32,055 nucleotides of DNA from a virus. Taxonomy: Duplodnaviria; Heunggongvirae; Uroviricota; Caudoviricetes. The stretch lies in the IMG/VR virus record IMGVR_UViG_3300040810_000833, positions 64,001-96,055 of that record, one strand, 5' to 3'. Each line of letters opens with the position of its first letter. The first letter of the stretch is position 1. Positions 5,702-27,850 of this stretch are shown one piece after another. The position numbers and the translations under genes are program-made. The notes below the pieces were generated by a model. The model did no database searches. It was not told where the DNA came from and saw nothing but the letters and a program-made list of their open reading frames with translations.

Positions 5702-6609
5702 TAGATAATCCTCGTGTTAATCTTTTGCGGTTTAAAGCCCTCATAACCGCTTATGGCCCAGCAGTCGCCAACTCTCAATATGTATCTTTCGAGAATGTCA
5801 GCGTCTATCCAAAAGCTGCCATCAGGTTGGTCATGACGCTTATTCCCAGCATTCCATCGGCCCCAGCTATTGGCACAGCAAACACCAGGTCTTCTATAGG
5901 CATCATCTATTCCACATAGCCACATTTGGTGATACCAAGTGCCGTACCGTCTTGCGAAGCCCTCCCTATCTCTCTTTGAGGAGAATCCTTGGCTACTGGC
6001 AATTGTTACAGCGTACCCATTAGCAATCAAGTCCCTAACTTCTTCGTAGGTTTTTACCTGAGATATTATTCCTACCGGATGTGACTTCGCGGAATCAACA
6101 AATTCTTGTGGCAGCTTGAAGCCCTTATTACCCCATTTTCTCGCACGTTCTCCACTATACTTAGACAGGTCTATTGAGCCGTACACGCCACGGGGAAGAC
6201 AGCCGTACTGACTAATATACTTAGCCGCCCATACTCCGAGAGATCCATCCCTATTACCAAGCCGCCCCTGACCTATCACATTTCTGCTACCCCAGTAGAT
6301 ATCCTCAGTGGAGGTTTCATTGACCCATAATTCATCCTCTTTTTTTAGGTAGATGTCTACGCACTTAATTGCATCTACCGCACCTGCGGCACCAAAAGCG
6401 ACACAATCGCCTATTTTCTGTTTTCTGTATGGGAAATCTCCAGCCACACGACGGATTATGTCATAAAGAAGAACTATTTTCCCCTTACCGCTTCCCTTTA
6501 TTTGACTATGGACGTCCGAGAATACGGGGTGTGGTAAATCACCCATCGCATGCTCTACTCCACGAGGATCATCCACCCACCCGAAAAGGTCAGAGTACTT
6601 ACTTTTCAT
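5701..6609 (-). CDS. Papain-like (C1 family) cysteine peptidase
   Basis: Q..GDCVAFG (catalytic Cys), WYHQM (His), ANSWG (Asn), G.FWI. Confidence 0.8.
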   Translation of the reverse strand: MKSKYSDLFGWVDDPRGVEHAMGDLPHPVFSDVHSQIKGSGKGKIVLLYDIIRRVAGDFPYRKQKIGDCVAFGAAGAVDAIKCVDIYLKKEDELWVNETSTEDIYWGSRNVIGQGRLGNRDGSLGVWAAKYISQYGCLPRGVYGSIDLSKYSGERARKWGNKGFKLPQEFVDSAKSHPVGIISQVKTYEEVRDLIANGYAVTIASSQGFSSKRDREGFARRYGTWYHQMWLCGIDDAYRRPGVCCANSWGRWNAGNKRHDQPDGSFWIDADILERYILRVGDCWAISGYEGFKPQKINTRII

Positions 6610-18841: not shown

Positions 18842-19023
18842 TGTTTAGGTATGACTTATCAGACAAAAAACTAAGGGATCATGAAGATCGCGTTGTTGGG
18901 TCTGTAAAGAACAACAGATTTACTCAAGATGGCTGTCACGAACACTACAAAAACGGATTTGTCCCTAGAGAGCTTGAGCAAATCTCCGAGGCTCTACAGA
19001 GGGGTGGAGTGAATTACCTGTGA
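18838..19023 (+). CDS. Hypothetical protein
   Basis: 61 aa, overlaps both neighbours. Confidence 0.55.
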   Translation: MMFRYDLSDKKLRDHEDRVVGSVKNNRFTQDGCHEHYKNGFVPRELEQISEALQRGGVNYL

Positions 19024-19520
19024 AGAAGTGTCTCGTTGTTAACTCTGACATGACGCCACTCTCCATTATTCCGCTAAGGAGGTCGATGACCCTTGATCTT
19101 TACAGTGATAGGGTTACGGCATTATCTTATTATGCGGATTCATCTATACGCAGCGAGTCTATATCGCATAGAATTCCAGCCGTCATGATGTGCGTTAATT
19201 ACGTAAACGCGACAATGGTCAAGCGTCCAACAAAAAGAAACATAAGACTCAGAGATGACAACAAATGTGCTTATTGTGGAAGTTATTTAACCAAGTGTAG
19301 CTTCAGCATTGATCATGTTATTCCAAAGAGTAGATTCAATCAATCGTCTGCGGCAAACACATGGAAGAATCAGGTTGCCTGCTGCATCCCCTGCAATCTA
19401 AAAAAGGGGGACAGAACGCCGGAAGAGGCTGGGATGACACTACTAATAATCCCAAAAAAAGTTCACGGTATTGTCGTTGGGAGTGAAATTCCTAATGAAT
19501 GGATTCCGTATTTGGGGTAA
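19020..19520 (+). CDS. HNH endonuclease (McrA-like)
   Basis: RDDNKCAYCG, IDHVIPKSR, W.N.VACCIPCNLKKGDRTPEEAGM. Confidence 0.9.
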   Translation: MKKCLVVNSDMTPLSIIPLRRSMTLDLYSDRVTALSYYADSSIRSESISHRIPAVMMCVNYVNATMVKRPTKRNIRLRDDNKCAYCGSYLTKCSFSIDHVIPKSRFNQSSAANTWKNQVACCIPCNLKKGDRTPEEAGMTLLIIPKKVHGIVVGSEIPNEWIPYLG

Positions 19521-20515: not shown

Positions 20516-21748
20516 TCATGAGACTTCTTCTTGGTCGACGTAGTCGTCATTTTCCTTTGCGATTCCCTCAAGCACCTTGAATGTCCAACCTTTATGCTTG
20601 TAGGCTCTCCATTCAGACGAGTCAACCCTAACACAAACCCCCTCCCTGACATGTCTTGTGTCAATGGGGTCTTCGCCGTCAGAGAGAGAATCAACTCTTT
20701 CAATAAGTGACTCTTGATCTCCATCGTAAATGAATCTGTCGAGTTCTGGGACATGTTTAACATCCCATTGCTCACACTTCTTCTTTACTTGATCCCAAGT
20801 TAGGTCGATGGTAGTTCCGTTTGGTAGAACATACGCAATACGGTAAATATAGATGTCAAACTCTCCAGGATTGCAGCCATAAGAGTATGTCATCGTCTCT
20901 CCGTAACGCTTTGCCTCTTTTGATTTATTTGTAGAGTGAGATGGCATAATAGACTTCTGCCCCTCATAACCAACAACTTCAAAAAAGACCTGCATATGAT
21001 CTTCTAAGTACGGCATAATACGACGAGCCACGGCATCACGCCAAGACTCTGAGTAGTATCCACCACCCTTACCTTTTAACGTAACCCTTCGCGTGCCATT
21101 GTATTCCCTCATCCCTTGAGTTCTTGAAAACCCAATAAGGTTAAACAGCTTGTCATACCACCTTGATTCTGCTTCTTCGATGTTTTTCGCAACACGCTGA
21201 GAAGTTCCATGCATTTTCAATGTCACGACGAGCGTCTGCCCTGCTTTGAGATCTGCGGTAGATCTTGCTAGGTGATCAGTTTCTTTATGCTCTGGAAACA
21301 CTGTGTACTTTTTAGATGCTTGATTTCTTGACATTCTTTCTGTTTTTGGCGTAATGTACTTTTTAGCAATTTCTACGCCGCAAAACTCAGTAATTTTATC
21401 ACCTGGGTTTAATACTGAAGTATCTCCGAAAGAACCTAAGTAAGAAATCGGGCACCAAAATCCACAGGACTTAATTCCCCGAAATTTCTGTGCTCTAACC
21501 CTTCGGTTTTCTTCAAACATTCCACCGGCCTTAGATCCGTCTTCGTTCTTTCTACGAACTAGGTCGTTGACTGCCGCAAAATCATACCCAAGCTGGAGTT
21601 CGCACGGAAAGTATAAACCAAGTGCATTGTCTTCTGTGTCTTTGGATACGATCACCGTTTCTCCACAAACATTACCAACCGCCAAGGAGTGAACTTCTGG
21701 GTCGGGGTGTGGAGTGACTTTGACTCTTGAAACAATCGCTGCGTGCAT
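20516..21748 (-). CDS. ATP-dependent RNA ligase (DRB0094/Rnl2-like) with N-terminal OB-like domain
   Basis: TLKMHGTS (motif I), FFEVVG, FDIYIY, REGVCVR, AYKHK nucleotidyltransferase motifs; AGGAGG RBS. Confidence 0.85.
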   Translation of the reverse strand: MHAAIVSRVKVTPHPDPEVHSLAVGNVCGETVIVSKDTEDNALGLYFPCELQLGYDFAAVNDLVRRKNEDGSKAGGMFEENRRVRAQKFRGIKSCGFWCPISYLGSFGDTSVLNPGDKITEFCGVEIAKKYITPKTERMSRNQASKKYTVFPEHKETDHLARSTADLKAGQTLVVTLKMHGTSQRVAKNIEEAESRWYDKLFNLIGFSRTQGMREYNGTRRVTLKGKGGGYYSESWRDAVARRIMPYLEDHMQVFFEVVGYEGQKSIMPSHSTNKSKEAKRYGETMTYSYGCNPGEFDIYIYRIAYVLPNGTTIDLTWDQVKKKCEQWDVKHVPELDRFIYDGDQESLIERVDSLSDGEDPIDTRHVREGVCVRVDSSEWRAYKHKGWTFKVLEGIAKENDDYVDQEEVS

Positions 21749-21795
21749 TTTAGATTCCTCCTAGTTAAAAGACTGTTTGATCAATTCGCTCTGGC

Positions 21796-21823
21796 ATTCT
21801 ACAGCCAGTATCGTCATTGTCAA
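21796..21823 (-). promoter_or_regulatory. Sigma70-type promoter for RNA ligase gene
   Basis: TTGACA-N16-TAGAAT. Confidence 0.75.
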
Positions 21824-21848
21824 TGCGTTTCATCAAGAAAATTCAAAT

Positions 21849-21879
21849 AAAAAAGCCCGTTTGGATAACAAGGGCGGGC
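21849..21879 (-). terminator. Terminator ending the tmRNA coding piece
   Basis: GCCCG...CGGGC stem followed by T6. Confidence 0.75.
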
Positions 21880-22017
21880 AACCCCCCGTGACTACTCACG
21901 CAGCCATTGCGACATTTCTGCCTGCATTTATTTTTGATTAGATTTTTTAGCTGGCCCTTCTAATCACCCAGCACATGCAGTCGTTACCTACGTCACCTGT
22001 CAATTCCATTCACCCCC
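21855..22017 (-). ncRNA. ssrA: Two-piece tmRNA, coding piece
   Basis: 5' GGGGGTGAATGGAATTGACAGG (acceptor 5' strand plus D-loop); H-type pseudoknot GCTGG/CCAGC with GATTAGA/TCTAATC; AAAAATAAAT before the resume codon; tag ORF; stop-codon hairpin CGTGA-GTAG-TCACG. Confidence 0.9.
21896..21925 (-). other. tmRNA tag reading frame AGRNVAMAA*
   Basis: GCA GGC AGA AAT GTC GCA ATG GCT GCG TGA; hydrophobic AA C-terminus of ssrA degrons. Confidence 0.85.
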
Positions 22018-22556
22018 GTTGTTTTAGTAACTGCTCGTGCGAATTCTATAACATCTTCATCTGAAAATTTATTTCGAGCAAAGTTAAACATAACAGAAAC
22101 AAATCTAACATTGTCTACAGCATACCCTTTTGAATTATCAATTCTATCAAGACTTGCTGTTTTTAATCTTAATTTGTAGTTCTTAGATTGAGTTGGAAGT
22201 TCTAATGCCCAGCCAGTAAGAGGACAAATGCCTTTTTGAGAGTCCCAGATTTCTTTCAGAGATTCTAAAGTTATAGTAATTTCTTTACCTCTTCTGTGTA
22301 GTCTCCTAAAAGTTTCTCTAAATGGTGATAGCTCGTCAGCTCTGTTTCCAGCACGCTGAGATATGTCAAAATCACTTAGGTCTCTTATTCTTTTTAAATG
22401 ACTTAGTTGCTCAGGCTGTTTACCTGAACAAGACAGTCCACAATAAAACTTATCTTTACCCAACCTTATTCTTCTGTTATATTCTCCCTTCGATTTTTCA
22501 AATTCTTTGTTACAGGTTTCGCAGACGAGGGTTACTGTTTTCATCACAATCTCCAT
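21993..22556 (-). CDS. HNH-type (His-Me finger) endonuclease-like protein in the tmRNA intervening segment
   Basis: N-terminal CxxC...YCxxxC zinc motif; QKGICPLTG, SLDRIDNSKGY..DNV, N..RN motifs typical of phage homing-endonuclease-like proteins. Confidence 0.75.
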   Translation of the reverse strand: MEIVMKTVTLVCETCNKEFEKSKGEYNRRIRLGKDKFYCGLSCSGKQPEQLSHLKRIRDLSDFDISQRAGNRADELSPFRETFRRLHRRGKEITITLESLKEIWDSQKGICPLTGWALELPTQSKNYKLRLKTASLDRIDNSKGYAVDNVRFVSVMFNFARNKFSDEDVIEFARAVTKTTGVNGIDR

Positions 22557-22629
22557 TTAAGGTAATAGTAGTTTTATATCATACCATACACCAAAAACGA
22601 TGGAGAGCGTAAGAAAAAAAAATGGAGAG

Positions 22630-22706
22630 TGGAGGTGGGGGGCAACGATCCCCCGTCCAGTCTGATTTCAATAACAACGTCTACATGTTTATCCGGCTTA
22701 CGCCAG
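22630..22706 (-). ncRNA. ssrA: Two-piece tmRNA, acceptor piece
   Basis: CTGGC-GTAA-GCCGG hairpin, AAACATGTAG, then GGAC-GGGGG-ATCGTTG-CCCCC (T arm)-CACCTCC-A; pairs with GGGGGTG at 22017-22011 giving G3.U70 Ala identity; ACATGTA pairs with TGCATGT of the coding piece. Confidence 0.9.
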
Positions 22707-22709
22707 AAA

Positions 22710-22821
22710 AGGAGGGGCTGGACTCGAACCAGCATCAGGTTCCGACTTAGGAACGTGCCTTCCTCTTGGCACTTATTGGTATACTGCGTCCAGTATTGCC
22801 CGTCTTTATCATCACCCTCCC
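22710..22821 (-). ncRNA. Non-canonical tRNA-like RNA (acceptor + T arm + three hairpins)
   Basis: GGGAGGG/CCCTCCT acceptor, GCTGG-TTCGAGT-CCAGC T arm, hairpins ATACTG/CAGTAT, GTGCC/GGCAC (8-nt loop), GTTCC/GGAAC; no canonical D arm or anticodon loop. Confidence 0.65.
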
Positions 22822-22831
22822 CTAAAACTCT

Positions 22832-22885
22832 AACAAGTGGTGGTTCACTAAGAGGTTATCTTAGCCATTATGAACGTCGCTTGTT
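22832..22885. other. Long imperfect hairpin between tRNA-like RNAs
   Basis: AACAAGTGGTG/CGTCGCTTGTT, TTCA/TGAA, CTAAGA/TCTTAG. Confidence 0.55.
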
Positions 22886-22895
22886 TTTCATTAAT

Positions 22896-23027
22896 TGATG
22901 GCCGGTGGAGTCGAACCACCATATGCGGTATATCTACCTATTTGCTCTCCAAGATAAAAGGGAATCGAACCCTAACGCCCTAACCACTAGGAAAACGGAG
23001 TCGAACCGTCTACATTCCAACGCCATC
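22896..23027 (-). ncRNA. tRNA-like RNA with three T-arms
   Basis: GATGGC/GCCATC closing stem plus discriminator A; arms GACGG-TTCGACT-CCGTT, AGGG-TTCGATT-CCCT, GGTGG-TTCGACT-CCACC. Confidence 0.75.
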
Positions 23028-23030
23028 TAA

Positions 23031-23114
23031 TAGGAGAAGAGGGATTCGAACCCCCGAAGGCATAATGCCGCTAGATTTACAGTCTAGTCCTTTTGGCCGC
23101 TTAGGTATTCTCCT
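23031..23114 (-). tRNA. tRNA-Tyr(GTA)
   Basis: CTAGA-CT-GTA-AA-TCTAG anticodon arm, long variable arm, TTCGAAT T loop, AGGAGAA/TTCTCCT acceptor. Confidence 0.93.
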
Positions 23115-23119
23115 ATAAA

Positions 23120-23255
23120 AATCAGACAAGTCAAGGTTACGTTGTGTTTTTATCACCGGCAGTATTTCTACGTCTTTCCCTCATATATTGCTATATGTCC
23201 AGTGTTTATTTCACAATAACTACGGTCTTTAGCCCCTTGATACATTAACCTGATT
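23120..23255 (-). ncRNA. Candidate structured ncRNA rich in GNRA hairpins
   Basis: AATCAGG/TCTGATT and TCAAGG/CCTTGA closing stems; TTATT-GTGA-AATAA, CATATA-GCAA-TATATG, GTA-GAAA-TAC. Confidence 0.55.
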
Positions 23256-23261
23256 AAATAA

Positions 23262-23400
23262 CGCCGCATAATGGAATCGAACCATTTTCTCCCGGGCACC
23301 CCGGTTGTTTTAACACTATATCACATTTCGCGAAAATGTCAAGTGCGAATTCTCTAAATTTAGCTACGATCTAGAAAGCTCTCCATTAAACTAATGCGGC
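23262..23400 (-). ncRNA. tRNA-like RNA with a large insertion containing a promoter
   Basis: GCCGCAT/ATGCGGC acceptor, TAGTTTAATGG D-arm, AATGG-TTCGATT-CCATT T arm, 9-bp stem with 9-nt loop, then about 60 extra nt. Confidence 0.65.
23315..23342 (-). promoter_or_regulatory. Sigma70-type promoter inside the tRNA-like element
   Basis: TTGACA-N16-TATAGT, extended -10 (TGn), inverted repeat ACATTT-TCGCG-AAATGT. Confidence 0.7.
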
Positions 23401-23477
23401 AATCCTCACCTATTCGACGAACTCAAACCAGTTCTATTTGCTCATTATTCCATCCTTAGAATGTGTCACAAAACTGA

Positions 23478-23521
23478 GCCAGATGGACACTCAGCCAAAA
23501 GGTATTGAGCATCCATCTGAC
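23478..23521 (-). other. Long hairpin downstream of rsr
   Basis: GTCAGATGGA/TCCATCTGGC plus TGCTCA/TGAGTG, with G.U pairs in the minus orientation. Confidence 0.6.
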
Positions 23522-23544
23522 TAAAATCAAAGATTCGACTTTCT

Positions 23545-24915
23545 TCATTGGGCTTCTGCAATAAATCTCAGGAATTGATCCGACCATCCCGAAATTTCTG
23601 CATCCCATACACCCCTGTAATTAATTCCATTTTGGTGACAACTTACATCAATGATGTAGTTTTTCTTGCCAAATGGACTTGGGGCTTTATTGGTGAGGTC
23701 GCAGTCTTGGCTGTCGCTGAACACAATAACTGTGTCGGTATTCTTTTCAAGTGGTCTTAGGTGATCCATACACTGCCGTGTAAAAATACCCCCGTAGCCA
23801 GCAGCGTTCTTGTTTGCACGAATCTCTTTCATTAATCCAAAACCGCGAAGGTTAGAAACTTTAATTGTCCTGTGTGTAGTATAGCCTCCCGCTGTAATGT
23901 AAATAGAAACCCCTTCGCACATTTCTGCCGCCATCATAGCCATAGAAATTCCCACGTCAAGTCTTGTATGTTTAGATTTTACGGAAATAGGACAATTCAT
24001 ACTTCCAGACACATCAAGGACAAAAACTGTCTCCCCCTTAATTTTTGGCAGTTCTGATAAGCAACGGAACATTAAGCCTTCCAAGTCAGGCATAAAGTCC
24101 GGGGCAGCTTCTGCAGCCTTGATAAAATCAACGGGAAGCAATGCTGATGTAGAGCATTGACTGATAGCTTTTCGGATGTTGGCCTTAGATACTCCAACCT
24201 GCTGCATGTTTCGTAAATTCCTCAGAACCGCTAAGGCACCAAGGCTCCGACTAGAAATCATATCTTCCCAGATATTCTTTTTTTCCTCATCTGACTTGGC
24301 TGCTGAATAACGAACCTCCCAAGTGTCTGGAGAGGTCAGTGTGCCATTAGCTAATTCCTTAAATAACAGTGACTGCTCTTGGTCTTTTGGTTTTGGGTGT
24401 GTCAGGAACAGAATGTCACGTAGACGAATATCAGCATCTCTATTCCACTTTGAGAGTTGATATCTGTCAAAATTAACCATTGCATCAGCCATTCCAAGTC
24501 GCAGCTGTCGAGAGATAGGCGTTCTTCCTTCTCTCCAGTAAAGAGCGAGTAGTTCAGTCAGTTGATCTGGTCGTGTACATACCTGCCGCACAGTTTCACG
24601 AACGAACGGTGCGTGCGTTTTGTATCGACACATTTCACGCACAACGAGCAATGGAACATGTCGCAGCTTCTGATCTCGTCGTGCAGAGACCGCTAAATCA
24701 GCACAGAATTTACCACTAACTGTTGGAATTAACTTACAAATCTCTGAGGCGATTTCAACACCGTCTTGATATGCGTTATCTTCCCATAGCAAACAGGTAA
24801 GAACCATACGCTTCAGTTCGTTTTCGTTCGACTGATTCGCTGCACGCAGGCCTTTACCTCCAGCAAGTCTTGCTGTCTTCATTTGCGGTGTTTTTGTTCT
24901 TACGTTGGTTCTCAT
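23545..24915 (-). CDS. rsr: Ro60 / TROVE-domain RNA-binding protein
   Basis: ELKRMVLTCLLWED..Y, KLRHVP, RPDQLTELL, FDRYQLSKW, TWE, LGALAVLRNLRNM, and vWA MIDAS FVLDVSGSM...FSDSQD; AAGGAG RBS. Confidence 0.92.
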   Translation of the reverse strand: MRTNVRTKTPQMKTARLAGGKGLRAANQSNENELKRMVLTCLLWEDNAYQDGVEIASEICKLIPTVSGKFCADLAVSARRDQKLRHVPLLVVREMCRYKTHAPFVRETVRQVCTRPDQLTELLALYWREGRTPISRQLRLGMADAMVNFDRYQLSKWNRDADIRLRDILFLTHPKPKDQEQSLLFKELANGTLTSPDTWEVRYSAAKSDEEKKNIWEDMISSRSLGALAVLRNLRNMQQVGVSKANIRKAISQCSTSALLPVDFIKAAEAAPDFMPDLEGLMFRCLSELPKIKGETVFVLDVSGSMNCPISVKSKHTRLDVGISMAMMAAEMCEGVSIYITAGGYTTHRTIKVSNLRGFGLMKEIRANKNAAGYGGIFTRQCMDHLRPLEKNTDTVIVFSDSQDCDLTNKAPSPFGKKNYIIDVSCHQNGINYRGVWDAEISGWSDQFLRFIAEAQ

Positions 24916-24932
24916 TTAAATCTCCTTATGGC

Positions 24933-24967
24933 AAAAAAAAAGAATGCACGGCATACACCGTGCATTC
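24933..24967 (-). terminator. Rho-independent terminator between the tRNA/Y RNA block and rsr
   Basis: GAATGCACGG-TGTATG-CCGTGCATTC followed by T9. Confidence 0.9.
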
Positions 24968-24982
24968 GCAAGCGTTCAAAAG

Positions 24983-25054
24983 CTGGCCAGGTAGGGATCG
25001 AACCTACAGCCCCTCGGTTAACAGCCGAGTGCTCTACCATTGAGCTACAAGCCA
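24983..25054 (-). tRNA. tRNA-Asn(GTT)
   Basis: CTCGG-CT-GTT-AA-CCGAG, canonical D and T arms, G73. Confidence 0.93.
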
Positions 25055-25060
25055 AAATTC

Positions 25061-25133
25061 GAGGTAACAAGCGAATACAGGGTTTTTGGACAGATTTTTA
25101 GTTCTGTTGATGAAGCTGTATTCTACGACACTC
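25061..25133 (-). ncRNA. Y RNA-like gene 1 (short, no tRNA domain)
   Basis: GTGTCGTAGAATACAGCTTCATC...CTGTATTCGCTTGTTACC; same scaffold as 25214-25290 and 25372-25519. Confidence 0.75.
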
Positions 25134-25136
25134 AAT

Positions 25137-25209
25137 TGTAGGATAAGGGATTCGAACCCTTAACTTCTGCTTGGAAGGCAGGCGTTTTAGCCATTGAAAC
25201 TAATCCTAC
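25137..25209 (-). tRNA. tRNA-Gly(TCC)
   Basis: CCTGC-CT-TCC-AA-GCAGA, GTAGGAT/ATCCTAC acceptor; atypical A73. Confidence 0.88.
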
Positions 25210-25213
25210 GTTT

Positions 25214-25290
25214 CTTACCAGAAGGCAACATTCGATTACAGCTTTTTACCTATAAAACGATGAATCTGCAATCTACAGCACTTTAGTAAG
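25214..25290 (-). ncRNA. Y RNA-like gene 2 (short, diverged Ro-binding motif)
   Basis: GTGCTGTAGATTGCAGATTCATC...TAAAAAG-CTGTAATCGAATGTTGCC with outer CTTACTA/TGGTAAG stem. Confidence 0.7.
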
Positions 25291-25293
25291 AAT

Positions 25294-25364
25294 TGGGGAT
25301 ACGGGAGTCGAACCCGCTGTCTTCGGCTTATGAGGCCGCTATGTAAACCGTTTCACTCATCCCC
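25294..25364 (-). tRNA. tRNA with CAT anticodon (elongator Met or lysidine Ile2)
   Basis: GCGGC-CT-CAT-AA-GCCGA; paired G1-C72 and no three G-C anticodon pairs, so not initiator. Confidence 0.88.
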
Positions 25365-25371
25365 TACAATA

Positions 25372-25519
25372 AAAGAGAGGTAACATTCGGTGCGAGAATT
25401 TTTAGCGTGCTACCGTTACACTACCGACCCACCAGCACGACGGCGGTGGACCAGGCTGGATTCGAACCAGCACAGCTCGATTAACATTCGATGAATCTCA
25501 CATCTTCGACACTCTCTTT
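25372..25519 (-). ncRNA. yrlA: YrlA-type Y RNA with a permuted tRNA-like domain
   Basis: GTCGAAG Ro60-binding motif in the terminal stem; T arm GCTGG-TTCGAAT-CCAGC, loop-closed acceptor stem, D arm TA-GTGT-AACGGTA-GCAC in T-acceptor-D order; near rsr and rtcB. Confidence 0.85.
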
Positions 25520-25525
25520 GTCTCA

Positions 25526-25774
25526 TTATAGACAAACTGTTTTGTTTGTCAACTGCTTTTCTACGATTTTTTCATTTTCATAATTATTTCGCCGCCTATC
25601 AAATGAATCAGAAATGTACGATGTTGCAACGGCAAACTGAAAGGCGAATGCGATACAGGCTGCGTAAAACGCAGCCTCTGCCCAGTCGCTCTCTTGTTCC
25701 GAAAGCCAGTTAATCAAAAATGGCGACCCGACCAATACAGCATTGAATTGAAATGCATTAAATACTTTCATCAT
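25526..25774 (-). CDS. Hypothetical membrane protein
   Basis: 82 aa with hydrophobic segments, directly downstream of rtcB; GAGGA RBS. Confidence 0.55.
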   Translation of the reverse strand: MMKVFNAFQFNAVLVGSPFLINWLSEQESDWAEAAFYAACIAFAFQFAVATSYISDSFDRRRNNYENEKIVEKQLTNKTVCL

Positions 25775-25787
25775 TTTACTTTCCTCG

Positions 25788-26840
25788 CTATCCTTTAATG
25801 TTTAAAATTGGGCGAATATAATCCACCACATCAACAGAGTCCACCTGAAGTTCCATGACTTCAAAGATATTTTTATACGCCATCGGCGATTCGTCAAGGG
25901 TATCTTTAGAAATATTTGCACAAACGCCAATCATTTGCTGCTTAAATTCTTCAATAGATAGTTTTCTTTTTGCCTCTTTTCTTCCATAGACTCGACCAGC
26001 ACCGTGAGAAGACGAACATATCCAGTCTGGATTGCCCTTACCTCTAACAATAAATGATCCATCACGCATATTTCCAGGAATCACACCCATCATTCCGTCT
26101 TCGGCGTGCGTGGCCCCTTTTCTATGAATCCATCCTCCATCCTTTAGTTCTGCGTGATTGTGGTTGCGGTTTACGGTTTCGATTATATCTCCGTCAATAA
26201 CGCTTGCCGCAGCTTGAGCCATCGCGAGTCGCGAATCCAAGGCATATTGTAGGCAAAATGCAAGATCATTCATGTAGTCGTCATGATCCTGACTTCCAAC
26301 CTCTAGGTGTGCATTGCAGTTCTTAATGTACCAAGAGGCAACGGAATGACCAAAGCCCCTAGATCCGGAATGAACCACAACCCATAAATGATTGTCGCGA
26401 CCCCTACCGACTTCGACGAAATGATTACCCCCGCCAAGAGTCCCGAGTTGCTTCAAGAATTTTTCCTTTTGATCTCTCCAAACTCTAAGACCAGGTGTGT
26501 CTTCTGTCGGATCATCATATGTTCTAATTCTCTCGTGGCAATTAAAGCCTACTGGAATCAGTTTTTCAATATCTGACTTGATCTTTGCTGCTTTATTCTG
26601 ATCAATATCAGTCGTGCTGTCAAGCTTTAACGCAGTCATTCCACAGCCAATATCAAATCCAACCCATGCAGGAACAACGACACCATCAGTCTTTACAACA
26701 GCACCAATCGGCAAATCATACCCTTGGTGTGCATCCGGCATTAATGCCCCATCAATAGCGAAATCAAAAGACATGCAGTTATCCATCTGGGTAACGGCAC
26801 CTTCTTCAAGAATCTCTGCGTATACACGGTACTTTGACAT
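25788..26840 (-). CDS. rtcB: RtcB RNA ligase
   Basis: MPDAH.G, VGFDIGCG, TLGGGNHFVE, HSGSRG, HNH, HRKGAT, IPGNM, SSSHGAGR, DESPMAYK. Confidence 0.96.
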   Translation of the reverse strand: MSKYRVYAEILEEGAVTQMDNCMSFDFAIDGALMPDAHQGYDLPIGAVVKTDGVVVPAWVGFDIGCGMTALKLDSTTDIDQNKAAKIKSDIEKLIPVGFNCHERIRTYDDPTEDTPGLRVWRDQKEKFLKQLGTLGGGNHFVEVGRGRDNHLWVVVHSGSRGFGHSVASWYIKNCNAHLEVGSQDHDDYMNDLAFCLQYALDSRLAMAQAAASVIDGDIIETVNRNHNHAELKDGGWIHRKGATHAEDGMMGVIPGNMRDGSFIVRGKGNPDWICSSSHGAGRVYGRKEAKRKLSIEEFKQQMIGVCANISKDTLDESPMAYKNIFEVMELQVDSVDVVDYIRPILNIKG

Positions 26841-26884
26841 TGGTATTTCCTTTTACTGCTTTTGCCTTGCTTTGAGATCTGAAC

Positions 26885-26959
26885 TGACCCGTATGGGAAT
26901 CGAACCCATGAACTCCAGGTTGAAAGCCTAGTATTTCTACCAGCAGAAACTAACGGGCC
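26885..26959 (-). tRNA. tRNA-Glu(TTC)
   Basis: CTAGG-CT-TTC-AA-CCTGG, GGCCCGT/ACGGGTC acceptor. Confidence 0.92.
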
Positions 26960-26968
26960 TTTTGGTGT

Positions 26969-26996
26969 ATTGTATCAAGCGAAAATCAATAGTCAA
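26969..26996 (-). promoter_or_regulatory. Promoter for the tRNA-Glu/rtcB/Y RNA transcript
   Basis: TTGACT-N16-TACAAT with TGn extension. Confidence 0.75.
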
Positions 26997-27011
26997 TGGA
27001 AGTCAAACAAA

Positions 27012-27084
27012 TTCAGGTGACAGGACTCGAACCTGCAACTTCTTGGTCCCAAACCAAGCACTCTACCAATTGAGCTACACCCGA
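27012..27084 (-). tRNA. tRNA-Pro(TGG)
   Basis: CTTGG-TT-TGG-GA-CCAAG. Confidence 0.93.
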
Positions 27085-27085
27085 T

Positions 27086-27168
27086 TACCAAGGGAGGGAC
27101 TCGAACCCTCACGCCCTTTCAGGCACCAGATCCTAAATCTGGCGTGGCTGCCATTTCACCACCTTGGC
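27086..27168 (-). tRNA. tRNA-Leu(TAG)
   Basis: CCAGA-TT-TAG-GA-TCTGG, long variable arm. Confidence 0.93.
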
Positions 27169-27183
27169 AATTATGGAAGAAGT

Positions 27184-27389
27184 AATAGTGCAAACGCACA
27201 CCTTCGGTCTCGACTAAAAGACCGTTTTCTATTTCGTCTATCCTTGCGTACAGCAAACCCCTGATGCTGAATCAAGCCCCTATATAGCAAGTCATGATTC
27301 AGCCAGTGTAATGCTCAGCCGTTAGCCCAGCCGGGCATTGCTAATTAGCAAAAACAAAGTTCAAGTGCTCCTATCAAAACCTCCACTAT
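27184..27389 (-). ncRNA. Candidate ~205-nt structured ncRNA inside the tRNA array
   Basis: Perfect stems GCTGAATCA/TGATTCAGC and CGGTCT/AGACCG, plus AATGC/GCATT, TGCT/AGCA and terminal AATAGTG/CACTATT; no supported ORF. Confidence 0.5.
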
Positions 27390-27460
27390 TTACTCCGCAG
27401 GGACTCGAACCCCAACTAACAGGACCAAAACCTGTGGTGCTACCATTACACTACGGAGTA
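27390..27460 (-). tRNA. tRNA-Gln(TTG)
   Basis: ACAGG-TT-TTG-GT-CCTGT, TACTCCG/CGGAGTA acceptor. Confidence 0.92.
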
Positions 27461-27461
27461 G

Positions 27462-27532
27462 AGGCACCAGCCGGGATCGAACCAGCAACGACTGTTTACA
27501 AAACAGTAGTTATACCATTTAACTATGGTGCC
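27462..27532 (-). tRNA. tRNA-Thr(TGT)
   Basis: ACTGT-TT-TGT-AA-ACAGT, GGCACCA/TGGTGCC acceptor. Confidence 0.92.
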
Positions 27533-27535
27533 AAA

Positions 27536-27607
27536 CAACACCCCTGAGAATCGAACTCAGCCAGTTTGATTTGGAGTCAAACTCGCCACCTTGGAACATT
27601 GGGTGCT
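27536..27607 (-). tRNA. tRNA-Trp(CCA)
   Basis: TTTGA-CT-CCA-AA-TCAAA, G73. Confidence 0.9.
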
Positions 27608-27611
27608 ATAG

Positions 27612-27684
27612 TACTCGCGGTAGGACTCGAACCCACAATCGGCAGGGTAGAAACCTGCTGCATTATCCATTATGCTACGCGAGC
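27612..27684 (-). tRNA. tRNA-Arg(TCT)
   Basis: GCAGG-TT-TCT-AC-CCTGC. Confidence 0.92.
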
Positions 27685-27689
27685 GTAAG

Positions 27690-27762
27690 TAGGGATGGTG
27701 GGAATCGAACCCACGACCAATGCTTTATAAGAACACTACTCTTACCACTGAGCTACATCCCC
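27690..27762 (-). tRNA. tRNA-Ile(TAT)
   Basis: GTGTT-CT-TAT-AA-AGCAT, GGGGATG/CATCCCT acceptor, A73. Confidence 0.9.
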
Positions 27763-27850
27763 ATTGCCGTGATAAGTGCCCTGATAATTCCTAGCCCATT
27801 CACCTTTAATAATGGAACTCTTAGTAGAAACAGCATTGCCTCCTAGAATC

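Follow-up and report, generated by a model that had tools for sequence, protein, structure and literature searches.

A phage two-piece tmRNA gene whose spacer carries the gene of a putative PacI-like homing-type nuclease

The two-piece tmRNA gene

Our subject is a gene for a circularly permuted, two-piece transfer-messenger RNA (tmRNA) in a virus of the class Caudoviricetes, together with the open reading frame (ORF) for a nuclease-like protein that lies between its two pieces. The DNA we analysed, which we call the window, is a stretch of 32,055 nucleotides (nt) covering positions 64,001 to 96,055 of the IMG/VR record IMGVR_UViG_3300040810_000833. An earlier note, made from the letters alone, had proposed this arrangement, and the positions it gave for the T arm, the acceptor end, the GGGGGTG 5' end, the 612-nt gap and the tag all match our reading of the minus strand.

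In the order of transcription the gene consists of an acceptor piece (22706-22630), an intervening segment of 612 nt (22629-22018) and a coding piece (22017-21849), all on the minus strand, as are the other features of the gene and its spacer given below. The acceptor piece opens with a 5'-terminal hairpin, CUGGC-GUAA-GCCGG (22693..22706), whose position is kept in relatives with different stems and with the tetraloops GAAA (L100), GUGA (L103) and GAGA (L102). This is followed by the 3' strand of helix P2 (22658..22690), which is the partner of 22010-21973, by a T arm with a stem of 5 base pairs (bp), GGGGG/AUCGUUG/CCCCC (22638..22654), and by the acceptor 3' strand with the discriminator (22630..22637), where CACCUCC (22637-22631) pairs with 22017-22011 and the discriminator is A22630. 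The terminal CCA is not encoded, the discriminator being followed by CTC. The coding piece begins with GGGGGUG (22011..22017), which is at once the 5' end of the tmRNA and the 5' strand of the acceptor stem, as placed by the Rfam alignment, by ARAGORN on constructs with a shortened spacer and by covariation. The resulting acceptor stem has 7 pairs including G3.U70, and an RNase P site is predicted just before G22017, where such a cut would be expected. Next come the D-loop analogue and the 5' strand of P2 (21973..22010), both strands of P2 having been placed by the Rfam alignment (RF04321), the RNAalifold consensus and pair counts over 11 loci. The piece continues with pseudoknot pk1 (21935..21972; GCUGG/CCAGC and UGAUUAGA/UCUAAUCA) and with the tag frame called by ARAGORN, GCA...TGA (21896..21925), which reads AGRNVAMAA*. 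At its 3' end lie pseudoknot pk2 (21889-21855; ACGGGGG/CCCUUGU and GCCCG/CGGGC) and a U-run (21854-21849), which together double as a terminator. Only pk3 and pk4 are absent, so that the earlier statement that pk2 to pk4 are all missing has to be corrected for pk2, which forms in 11/11 loci.

These 11 loci are the window and ten relatives. Eight of the relatives bear the ORF (L001 and L008 from viral contigs, L100-L105 from ENA, JGI and Logan assemblies), and two are without it (L096 and L098, with spacers of 36 and 29 nt). The two pieces of the gene pair with each other through the acceptor stem and P2, the latter with 22 pairs and compensatory changes in most of them. When all 29 inter-piece pairs are counted over the 11 loci, 95% of the cells hold standard pairs and 18/29 pairs show a compensatory change. 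As a control, the acceptor pieces were dealt to the wrong loci, which gave 83 +/- 1.6% pairing, and 0/1000 deals reached 95%. The G3.U70 pair is kept in 11/11 loci, while acceptor pairs 5, 6 and 7 change on both sides, so that variants such as GGGGGCG/CGCCTCC, GGGGATG/CATCTCC and GGGGGTA/TACCTCC are still paired. The T stem shows compensatory changes at 5/5 pairs. An H-type pk1 stands before the resume codon in 11/11 loci, in 8 sequence versions, and pk2 follows the stop codon in all of them with compensatory changes and a U-run at its end. Ten relatives carry different tags, among them AEPSFALAA, ANRSVALVA, ANRNVALAA, AEETLALAA, ADESLALAA, ANESFALAA, AERSFAMVA and, in the further locus L188, ADRNIAMAA; all tags have a small hydrophobic tail, -LAA, -MAA, -LVA or -MVA. 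Tag, pk1 and pk2 persist across tmRNA sequences down to 68% identity. The covariation of pairs across about 600 nt means that tmRNA function has been kept through this divergence, and from these sequence comparisons we conclude that the gene is a maintained phage-borne two-piece tmRNA of the betaproteobacterial (beta) type.

The Rfam model of permuted tmRNAs (tmRNA_permuted, RF04321) aligns end to end, from model position 1 to 213, over 21896-22688, which together with the covariation bears out the circularly permuted two-piece tmRNA of the earlier note. ARAGORN called no tmRNA on the intact window or region, and Rfam at its gathering threshold returned none in the window, in the whole contig or in the ORF-bearing locus L008. 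With the spacer trimmed to 160 nt or less, which is the limit of its tolerance, ARAGORN calls a permuted tmRNA with the same tag. The check with these two programs that had been suggested earlier is thus positive for the trimmed spacer and for the full-model alignment, but silent or below cut-off on the intact sequence. Of the ORF-less relatives, L098 reaches 100.4 bits with RF04321 and 97.5 bits with beta_tmRNA (RF01850, cut-off 84), and L096 reaches 76 bits with RF04321, which is above the curated cut-off.

The same layout recurs in independent assemblies (L001-L007, L100-L105 and L188), and L188 has an ORF 100% identical to that of the window. This excludes a misassembly of the gene order, which had been held out earlier as a possible refutation. 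Compared with window 23401-21588, L188 is 100% identical from 23401 to about 21925 (the upstream RNAs, the acceptor piece, the ORF and pk1), after which identity decays through the tag and pk2 and is gone past the 3' end of the tmRNA, so that a mosaic junction lies within the coding piece.

The spacer ORF and its protein family

The spacer measures 589-618 nt in the 9 ORF-bearing loci, and the search for short-spacer relatives returned the two ORF-less loci with their 29 and 36 nt, in keeping with the earlier statement that intervening segments are normally short. In 9/9 loci a cassette of leader and ORF fills the spacer exactly, from the discriminator at the 3' end to G1. The leader (22583..22629) stands in the same form before the ORF in relatives regardless of the orientation of the tmRNA. 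It contains two boxes, CTCTCCA, that resemble the acceptor 3' end (22629-22623 and 22607-22601) and the conserved sequence TTTTTGGTGTATGGT (22597-22583), and we infer for it a role as promoter or operator. Leaders carry one or two such boxes, and at least two acceptor-like boxes are found in 29/76 loci against 0.1 expected. Loci with the tmRNA on the opposite side of the ORF have the boxes too, which suggests that the boxes are either a sequence that the protein recognises or footprints of earlier hosts.

The ORF (21993..22556, 187 amino acids) encodes a zinc finger (CxxC...CxxxC) near the N terminus and, at the C terminus, a PacI-like His-Me finger domain. Its extent of 22556-21993, set against the spacer at 22629-22018, agrees with the earlier claim that the spacer holds most of a nuclease-like ORF. 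The true start is likely the second ATG at 22544 (183 amino acids), since the relatives begin with MKT or MSK and GGAG stands just before. The ORFs of the eight relatives are 57-84% identical to that of the window, and the ratio of nonsynonymous to synonymous substitution rates of 0.16-0.29 in five pairs indicates purifying selection on the ORF. The 9 spacer-resident ORFs form one clade (support 99/96) within a wider family.

The protein matches PHROG 3322, annotated as 'endonuclease', at 8e-23, and PHROG 1035 and 3118 with the same annotation. An alignment of 23 homologues shows a conserved C-terminal block, ASLDRIDNSKGY..GNVRFV...N.ARN, with Asp137, Arg138, Tyr145, Asn149, Arg151 and Asn158 invariant and no invariant His. 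The AlphaFold (AF2) model, with a predicted local distance difference test score of 84, has strands at 133-138 and 150-154 followed by a helix, which is the beta-beta-alpha-metal fold. The best PDB match to this model is PacI (3ldy) with a probability of 0.99, followed by Cap5, Cas9 HNH and McrA. A sequence-profile search of the PDB returned a MYM-type zinc finger for the N terminus (E 0.006), and PacI only at E 0.5. In the PacI group the catalytic His is lacking and a Tyr in the omega loop takes over its role (PMC5714182). Tyr145 of the window protein lies in the loop between the two strands, the omega loop, and is by this position a candidate counterpart of the PacI Tyr. Asn158 and Asn149 are candidate metal ligands, a role we assign to them from their position. 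We regard a free-standing homing-type endonuclease, with putative cleavage activity, as the most likely identity of the protein.

More than 500 viral loci that encode members of this family came out of a pattern search, and the viral neighbourhood counts that follow refer to the best 80 of them. In about 27/80 ARAGORN calls a standard, unpermuted tmRNA on the strand of the ORF, with its end 37-86 nt upstream. In most of the others a T arm and acceptor 3' end that ARAGORN misses can be seen by eye in this place, and some have the 3' end of the tmRNA tail-to-tail against the ORF on the opposite strand, so that the orientation of the cassette relative to the tmRNA varies. Five loci (L064, L068 and L077-L079) have the family ORF 29-51 nt after a tRNA-Ala gene rather than a tmRNA, as one would expect if an alanine-type acceptor and T-arm sequence is what is recognised. 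Among bacterial loci a chromosomal tmRNA adjoins the ORF in 38/51, mainly in filamentous cyanobacteria and mostly 57-80 nt upstream. In the cyanobacterial copies L111-L157 (Laspinema, Oscillatoria, Rivularia, Calothrix, Scytonema), which follow a standard tmRNA gene of the host, the reading frame is longer, with about 330 amino acids. Because the family adjoins the tmRNA 3' end whatever the form of the gene, its target would be that end, and the spacer merely lies there when the gene is permuted.

Members also occur in crAss-like phages, where they are annotated 'endonuclease'. At 2000-2040 of crAss-like phage cr56_1 (L106, NC_055890.1) the 3' end of such an ORF overlaps a T arm and acceptor 3' strand on the opposite strand, which is followed by 450 nt of unannotated non-coding DNA, a layout shared by the viral loci L020-L029. 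The ORF of L106 may stand tail-to-tail with a tmRNA-like gene missed by ARAGORN. Additionally, a distant homologue of the C-terminal domain lies between the two halves of the DNA polymerase gene of Escherichia phage KBNP1711.

Two further observations bear on mobility. In L030, L027, L010, L014 and L040 a direct repeat of 13-25 bp of the tmRNA 3' end brackets the cassette after a standard tmRNA. The repeat supplies a spare end, so that the tmRNA keeps an intact one and the displaced original follows the stop codon of the ORF. These repeats and the mosaic junction of L188 are the only hints of site-specific cutting and one-way gene conversion of ORF-less alleles. The tmRNAs of the ORF-less loci L096 and L098 are 72-81% identical to the ORF-bearing ones, which are 68-89% identical among themselves.

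A spacer cassette probably aimed at the tmRNA 3' end, and the alternatives

The best overall explanation, and in our judgement probably the right one, is a two-piece tmRNA whose spacer holds the cassette of a homing-type nuclease targeted to the tmRNA 3' end. We observed directly the anatomy, the covariation, the address of the family, the presence/absence polymorphism of the ORF, the fold and the purifying selection; cleavage, homing, the processing sites and a single precursor are what this explanation would add to them. The gene would be read with the acceptor piece first (5' hairpin, P2 3' strand, T arm, acceptor 3' strand), then the spacer, and then the coding piece (acceptor 5' strand, P2, pk1, tag, pk2/terminator). 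An RNase P cut before G22017, trimming of the 3' end after A22630 and addition of CCA would then give two RNAs, steps of maturation that we take over from the established biology of two-piece tmRNAs. These two RNAs would pair via the acceptor stem and P2, be charged with alanine via G3.U70 and make use of the SmpB protein of the host. The spacer would be a self-contained cassette (leader plus ORF) of a family of PacI-like His-Me fingers, which belong to the HNH superfamily. Its nuclease would recognise the conserved tmRNA 3' end and cut ORF-less alleles in co-infection, with repair then copying the cassette into them. Since a permuted gene has nothing but the spacer past this 3' end, the cassette would land there, and insertion would cost the RNA nothing because the spacer is discarded by tRNA-type end processing.

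The earlier note had already inferred a homing-type nuclease, and a selfish gene of this type is the best reading, favoured by the family address, the ORF-less relatives and the direct repeats. The note's further suggestion of the excised spacer as a neutral landing site is not supported in that wording, as the family adjoins tmRNA 3' ends of any form and not only permuted ones. The label 'HNH-like' stands at the level of the fold and of PHROG, but does not extend to the Pfam HNH models or to the general-base His, as described below.

Several findings weigh against this explanation and have to be set beside it. With RF04321 the window scores only 29.6 bits (E 9e-4) against a cut-off of 47, although this is probably an artefact of a model that must absorb a 612-nt insert. 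The T loop of the window, AUCGUUG, is non-canonical and departs from UUCGAnU. It is not conserved within the clade (the window, L100-L105, L008, L096 and L098) while the stem covaries, the versions being AUCGUUG, AUCAUUG, CUCGAUA, GGCAGUA, UUCAACU and the 6-nt UUCGAU. Such degeneracy is unusual for a tmRNA and may bear on contacts between the D and T loops or with SmpB. As for the protein, Pfam including its HNH models gave no match to the window ORF, and the position of the general-base His is taken by the invariant Arg138 across the family. The Foldseek match to PacI is weak (E 7e-3, template modelling (TM) score 0.34-0.42), and a His-Me finger without the His can be a pure DNA binder, e.g. 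the Smad MH1 group (PMC5714182). As for mobility, no ORF-less allele of the window's own tmRNA emerged when we scanned for a 5' end of the window type at 10-40 nt past CCACCTCCA, and a second scan gave only another ORF-bearing copy, L188. The tmRNA tree of 17 loci has inner supports of 21-50%, too weak for gain and loss of the ORF to be ordered, and the identities of ORF and tmRNA are partly correlated (rho 0.44), so that much of the history may be vertical.

Among the alternatives, the one that fares best concerns transcription. It is possible, if not what we favour, that the two pieces are transcribed separately, the acceptor piece as the tail of an upstream tRNA-like transcript and the coding piece as the 3' end of a nuclease mRNA that starts in the leader, which would make this a truly split gene. 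This would account for the conserved promoter-like leader before the ORF in all relatives, for the T-rich tract (T9 in the window) that most ORF-bearing loci have past the acceptor 3' end, and for the strong promoter-like site TTGACA-16-TATAGT at 23342-23315, upstream of the cluster of non-coding RNAs. However, a sigma-70 scan called neither a promoter within the spacer nor a terminator behind the acceptor piece, and the T run begins 15 nt past the T-arm hairpin, which is too far for a standard intrinsic terminator. Additionally, a 714-nt contig from one RNA library (21984-22697) bridges both junctions, running through the acceptor piece, the ORF and the tmRNA 5' end, with carry-over of DNA possible. 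One RNA run has a 641-nt contig of exactly 22017-22657, ending at the predicted G1, another has a contig end at 21858 near the terminator, and 4/4 RNA runs have no cover somewhere in 21750-21860. These ends and gaps come from single runs, are assembled and may include DNA, and we take them as hints only, not as evidence for processing.

A second alternative concerns the protein, which could be a domesticated DNA- or RNA-binding partner of the tmRNA, a regulator of its transcription or maturation that is no nuclease and is kept for its function. Arg in place of the catalytic His in every member, the existence of the His-less, DNA-binding-only fingers mentioned above and the purifying selection on the ORF would all suit such a role. 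So would the near universal association with tmRNA in phages and on cyanobacterial chromosomes, and the acceptor-like boxes in the family's own leader suggest sequence-specific binding. We nevertheless regard it as unlikely, given that close relatives of the tmRNA do without the ORF, that orientation is variable and includes tail-to-tail, and that duplications of the target flank the cassette. The C-terminal domain is also found in a classical homing position, in the split DNA polymerase gene, and PacI, the best structural match, is an active nuclease without the His.

A third alternative turns the order of events around. The permutation could have arisen around the ORF when a tandem array of tmRNA, ORF and tmRNA lost its outer halves, and then the ORF would be a fossil of this event and short spacers would be later deletions. 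The family is indeed found downstream of standard phage tmRNAs, the spacer-resident ORFs are one clade next to those of standard phage tmRNAs, and the exact fit of the ORF from the 3' end to G1 in 9/9 loci is what such an origin would leave behind. The full-length match of L098 to the beta two-piece model (97.5 bits) points instead to a pre-existing permuted lineage with short spacers, and ORF-less permuted tmRNAs with spacers of 20-100 nt are common in phages (PMC9004378), which makes this origin quite improbable.

Lastly, it is hardly credible that the tmRNA is a relic broken by the insertion, or that its true acceptor partner is an upstream tRNA-like element at about 22745-22712: the window Rfam score is under the cut-off and ARAGORN on shortened constructs does pick the upstream T arm, about 90 nt away from the one we assign, with its canonical GGUUCGAGUCC loop, but the comparative data reject this pairing, as it leaves a U-C mismatch in the acceptor stem, a discriminator U and no P2 partner, L001 and L008 have this tmRNA but not the element upstream of it, 22654-22630 forms a faultless stem with covariation in 11 loci, and tag, pk1 and pk2 are maintained at tmRNA identity as low as 68%.

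If the locus is a two-piece tmRNA with a homing-type cassette in its spacer, as we prefer, the end of the ORF raises a further idea. In 9/9 spacer-resident copies, examined as DNA, the ORF runs past the mature tmRNA 5' end and has its stop codon 6-30 nt within the RNA. In the window ORF and coding piece share 25 nt, the last of the one and the first of the other, and in others the stop codon is provided by the TGA of GGGGGTGA. Of the 63 closest protein clusters, at least 40 have C-terminal peptides that translate a tmRNA 5' end. With the stop inside the mature 5' end, an RNase P cut at G1 would leave a non-stop nuclease mRNA. The nuclease could then be wired into tmRNA maturation, with the non-stop ribosomes rescued and the nuclease tagged by its own tmRNA for degradation, in a self-limiting manner that would let the rate of processing set the dose. 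We put this forward tentatively and are inclined to doubt it.

Setting and relation to known systems

The window is the final 32 kb of a 96-kb IMG/VR viral contig with a completeness estimate of about 63%. This stretch was found in estuary, marsh, freshwater and marine metagenomes, in the DNA runs of many studies. A nucleotide search of GenBank phages gave matches to tRNA only, thus there is no close cultured relative at the DNA level among them. The surroundings of the tmRNA are an RNA-centred island of RNA repair and translation genes on the minus strand (20516-27800), with an RNA ligase (21748-20516, minus strand), a TROVE/Ro60-like protein (24915-23545, minus strand) and RtcB (26840-25788, minus strand). 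The island also holds twelve tRNA genes and several tRNA-like or odd RNAs, an example being the 95-nt 'tRNA-Pro' at 22895-22989. Another is a self-contained RNA of about 118 nt (22712-22830, minus strand) with a tRNA-like acceptor stem and a canonical T arm (GGUUCGAGUCC) and no normal D/anticodon half. It ends 5 nt upstream of the acceptor piece, its T arm is the one that ARAGORN mistakes for the 3' domain of the tmRNA, and L100 has a homologue in front of its tmRNA, which L001 and L008 do not. Other parts of the window contain genes for ribonucleotide reductase. Neither SmpB nor the CCA-adding enzyme turned up on the 96-kb contig, which at about 63% completeness is no proof of their absence.

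Other nuclease genes also occur near these tmRNAs. A canonical HNH_5 endonuclease gene of 166 amino acids (Pfam 1.8e-10) lies at 19020-19520 on the plus strand, 2.5 kb from the tmRNA of the window, and L001 has a similar HNH gene (165 amino acids) two genes downstream of its tmRNA. L096 (at about 5850-6260 as oriented) and L098 have other canonical HNH genes (motifs CANCHREIH and CKRCNSKKG) just upstream of the tmRNA, and in L096 this ORF reads into the acceptor piece. Several nuclease families appear to have hot spots in the tmRNA/tRNA regions of L096/L098-type phages.

Two-piece tmRNAs in aquatic phages have been described before, with 53 among 18,146 phage genomes, and examples in OM43 phage Melnitz and in pelagimyophages (PMC9004378), cases which the earlier note left out when it listed alphaproteobacteria, cyanobacteria and betaproteobacteria as hosts. 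The window gene resembles the published phage cases in its aquatic setting. It is also like the two-piece tmRNAs of RF04321 and RF01850 in having the acceptor piece first, a stem of two RNAs with G3.U70, P2, pk1, a tag ending in AA, and in the loss of the 3' pseudoknots. It is unlike them in its spacer, which is 612 nt and protein-coding where theirs are tens of nt, in its non-canonical T loop, and in escaping both ARAGORN and Rfam at curated cut-offs.

The 2025 tmRNA database holds 97,179 sequences, 11,946 of them permuted, and reports homing endonuclease genes only in T-loop group I introns, 36/883 of which carry LAGLIDADG (PMC11915505). The same source calls a tRNA gene in a spacer 'unique' and explains the longest gene (1152 bp) by a repetitive element; protein-coding spacers are not mentioned in it. 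The window gene shares with the intron-form tmRNA genes a homing-type nuclease gene that sits in the part removed from the RNA and by the tRNA-like 3' domain. It differs from them in that there is no ribozyme and tRNA-end processing, not splicing, would remove the insert, and additionally in having a PacI-like His-Me finger in place of LAGLIDADG and in lying after the 3' end rather than within the T loop.

Among free-standing homing endonucleases the nearest parallel is SegB of T4, a GIY-YIG enzyme in a phage tRNA gene cluster for which cutting was shown (PMC2330249). As with SegB-type genes, we are dealing with a small stand-alone nuclease gene that has its own leader, is sporadic and stands beside conserved RNA genes, and its spread by cutting ORF-less genomes in co-infection would be expected. 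Unlike the proven cutter SegB, the window family is one of putative nucleases, is tied to tmRNA across diverse phages and bacteria, and often carries a spare copy of the 3' end of its target. With PacI it shares zinc-bound motifs around a beta-beta-alpha-metal core, the lack of a catalytic His and, as a candidate counterpart, a Tyr in the loop between the strands (Tyr145 here). However, the identity to PacI is 17% at the TM scores given above, and PacI is a homodimeric restriction enzyme and not a mobile gene. The split DNA polymerase of KBNP1711 has the same C-terminal domain, as a distant homologue, between the halves of a conserved and presumably working gene. There a protein gene of normal order is split, whereas here the RNA gene was already permuted and in two pieces and the ORF lies in the discarded spacer.

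Two-piece tmRNAs and homing-type nucleases are each of a known kind. In this gene a protein-coding spacer hosts a member of an uncharacterised, probably tmRNA-targeted PacI-like family, and our search of the literature found no description of this nuclease family or of a protein-coding or nuclease gene in a tmRNA spacer. The finding extends the known forms of tmRNA genes, in that the spacer which a two-piece gene discards can accommodate an entire protein gene without loss of tmRNA function and without an intron ribozyme. Given the tolerance of ARAGORN of about 160 nt and the unreached Rfam cut-off, tmRNA censuses of phages and metagenomes would undercount such genes, and at least 40 related protein clusters appear, judged by their C-terminal peptides, to lie in the same spacer position. 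More broadly, a large unnamed PacI-like family is addressed to tmRNA in crAss-like phages, in large aquatic phages and on cyanobacterial chromosomes. If its putative activity is real, this family would be a ready source of site-specific enzymes with a predictable and highly conserved target. The stop codon within the mature RNA, if it works as proposed, would link RNA processing, non-stop decay and the control of a selfish gene.

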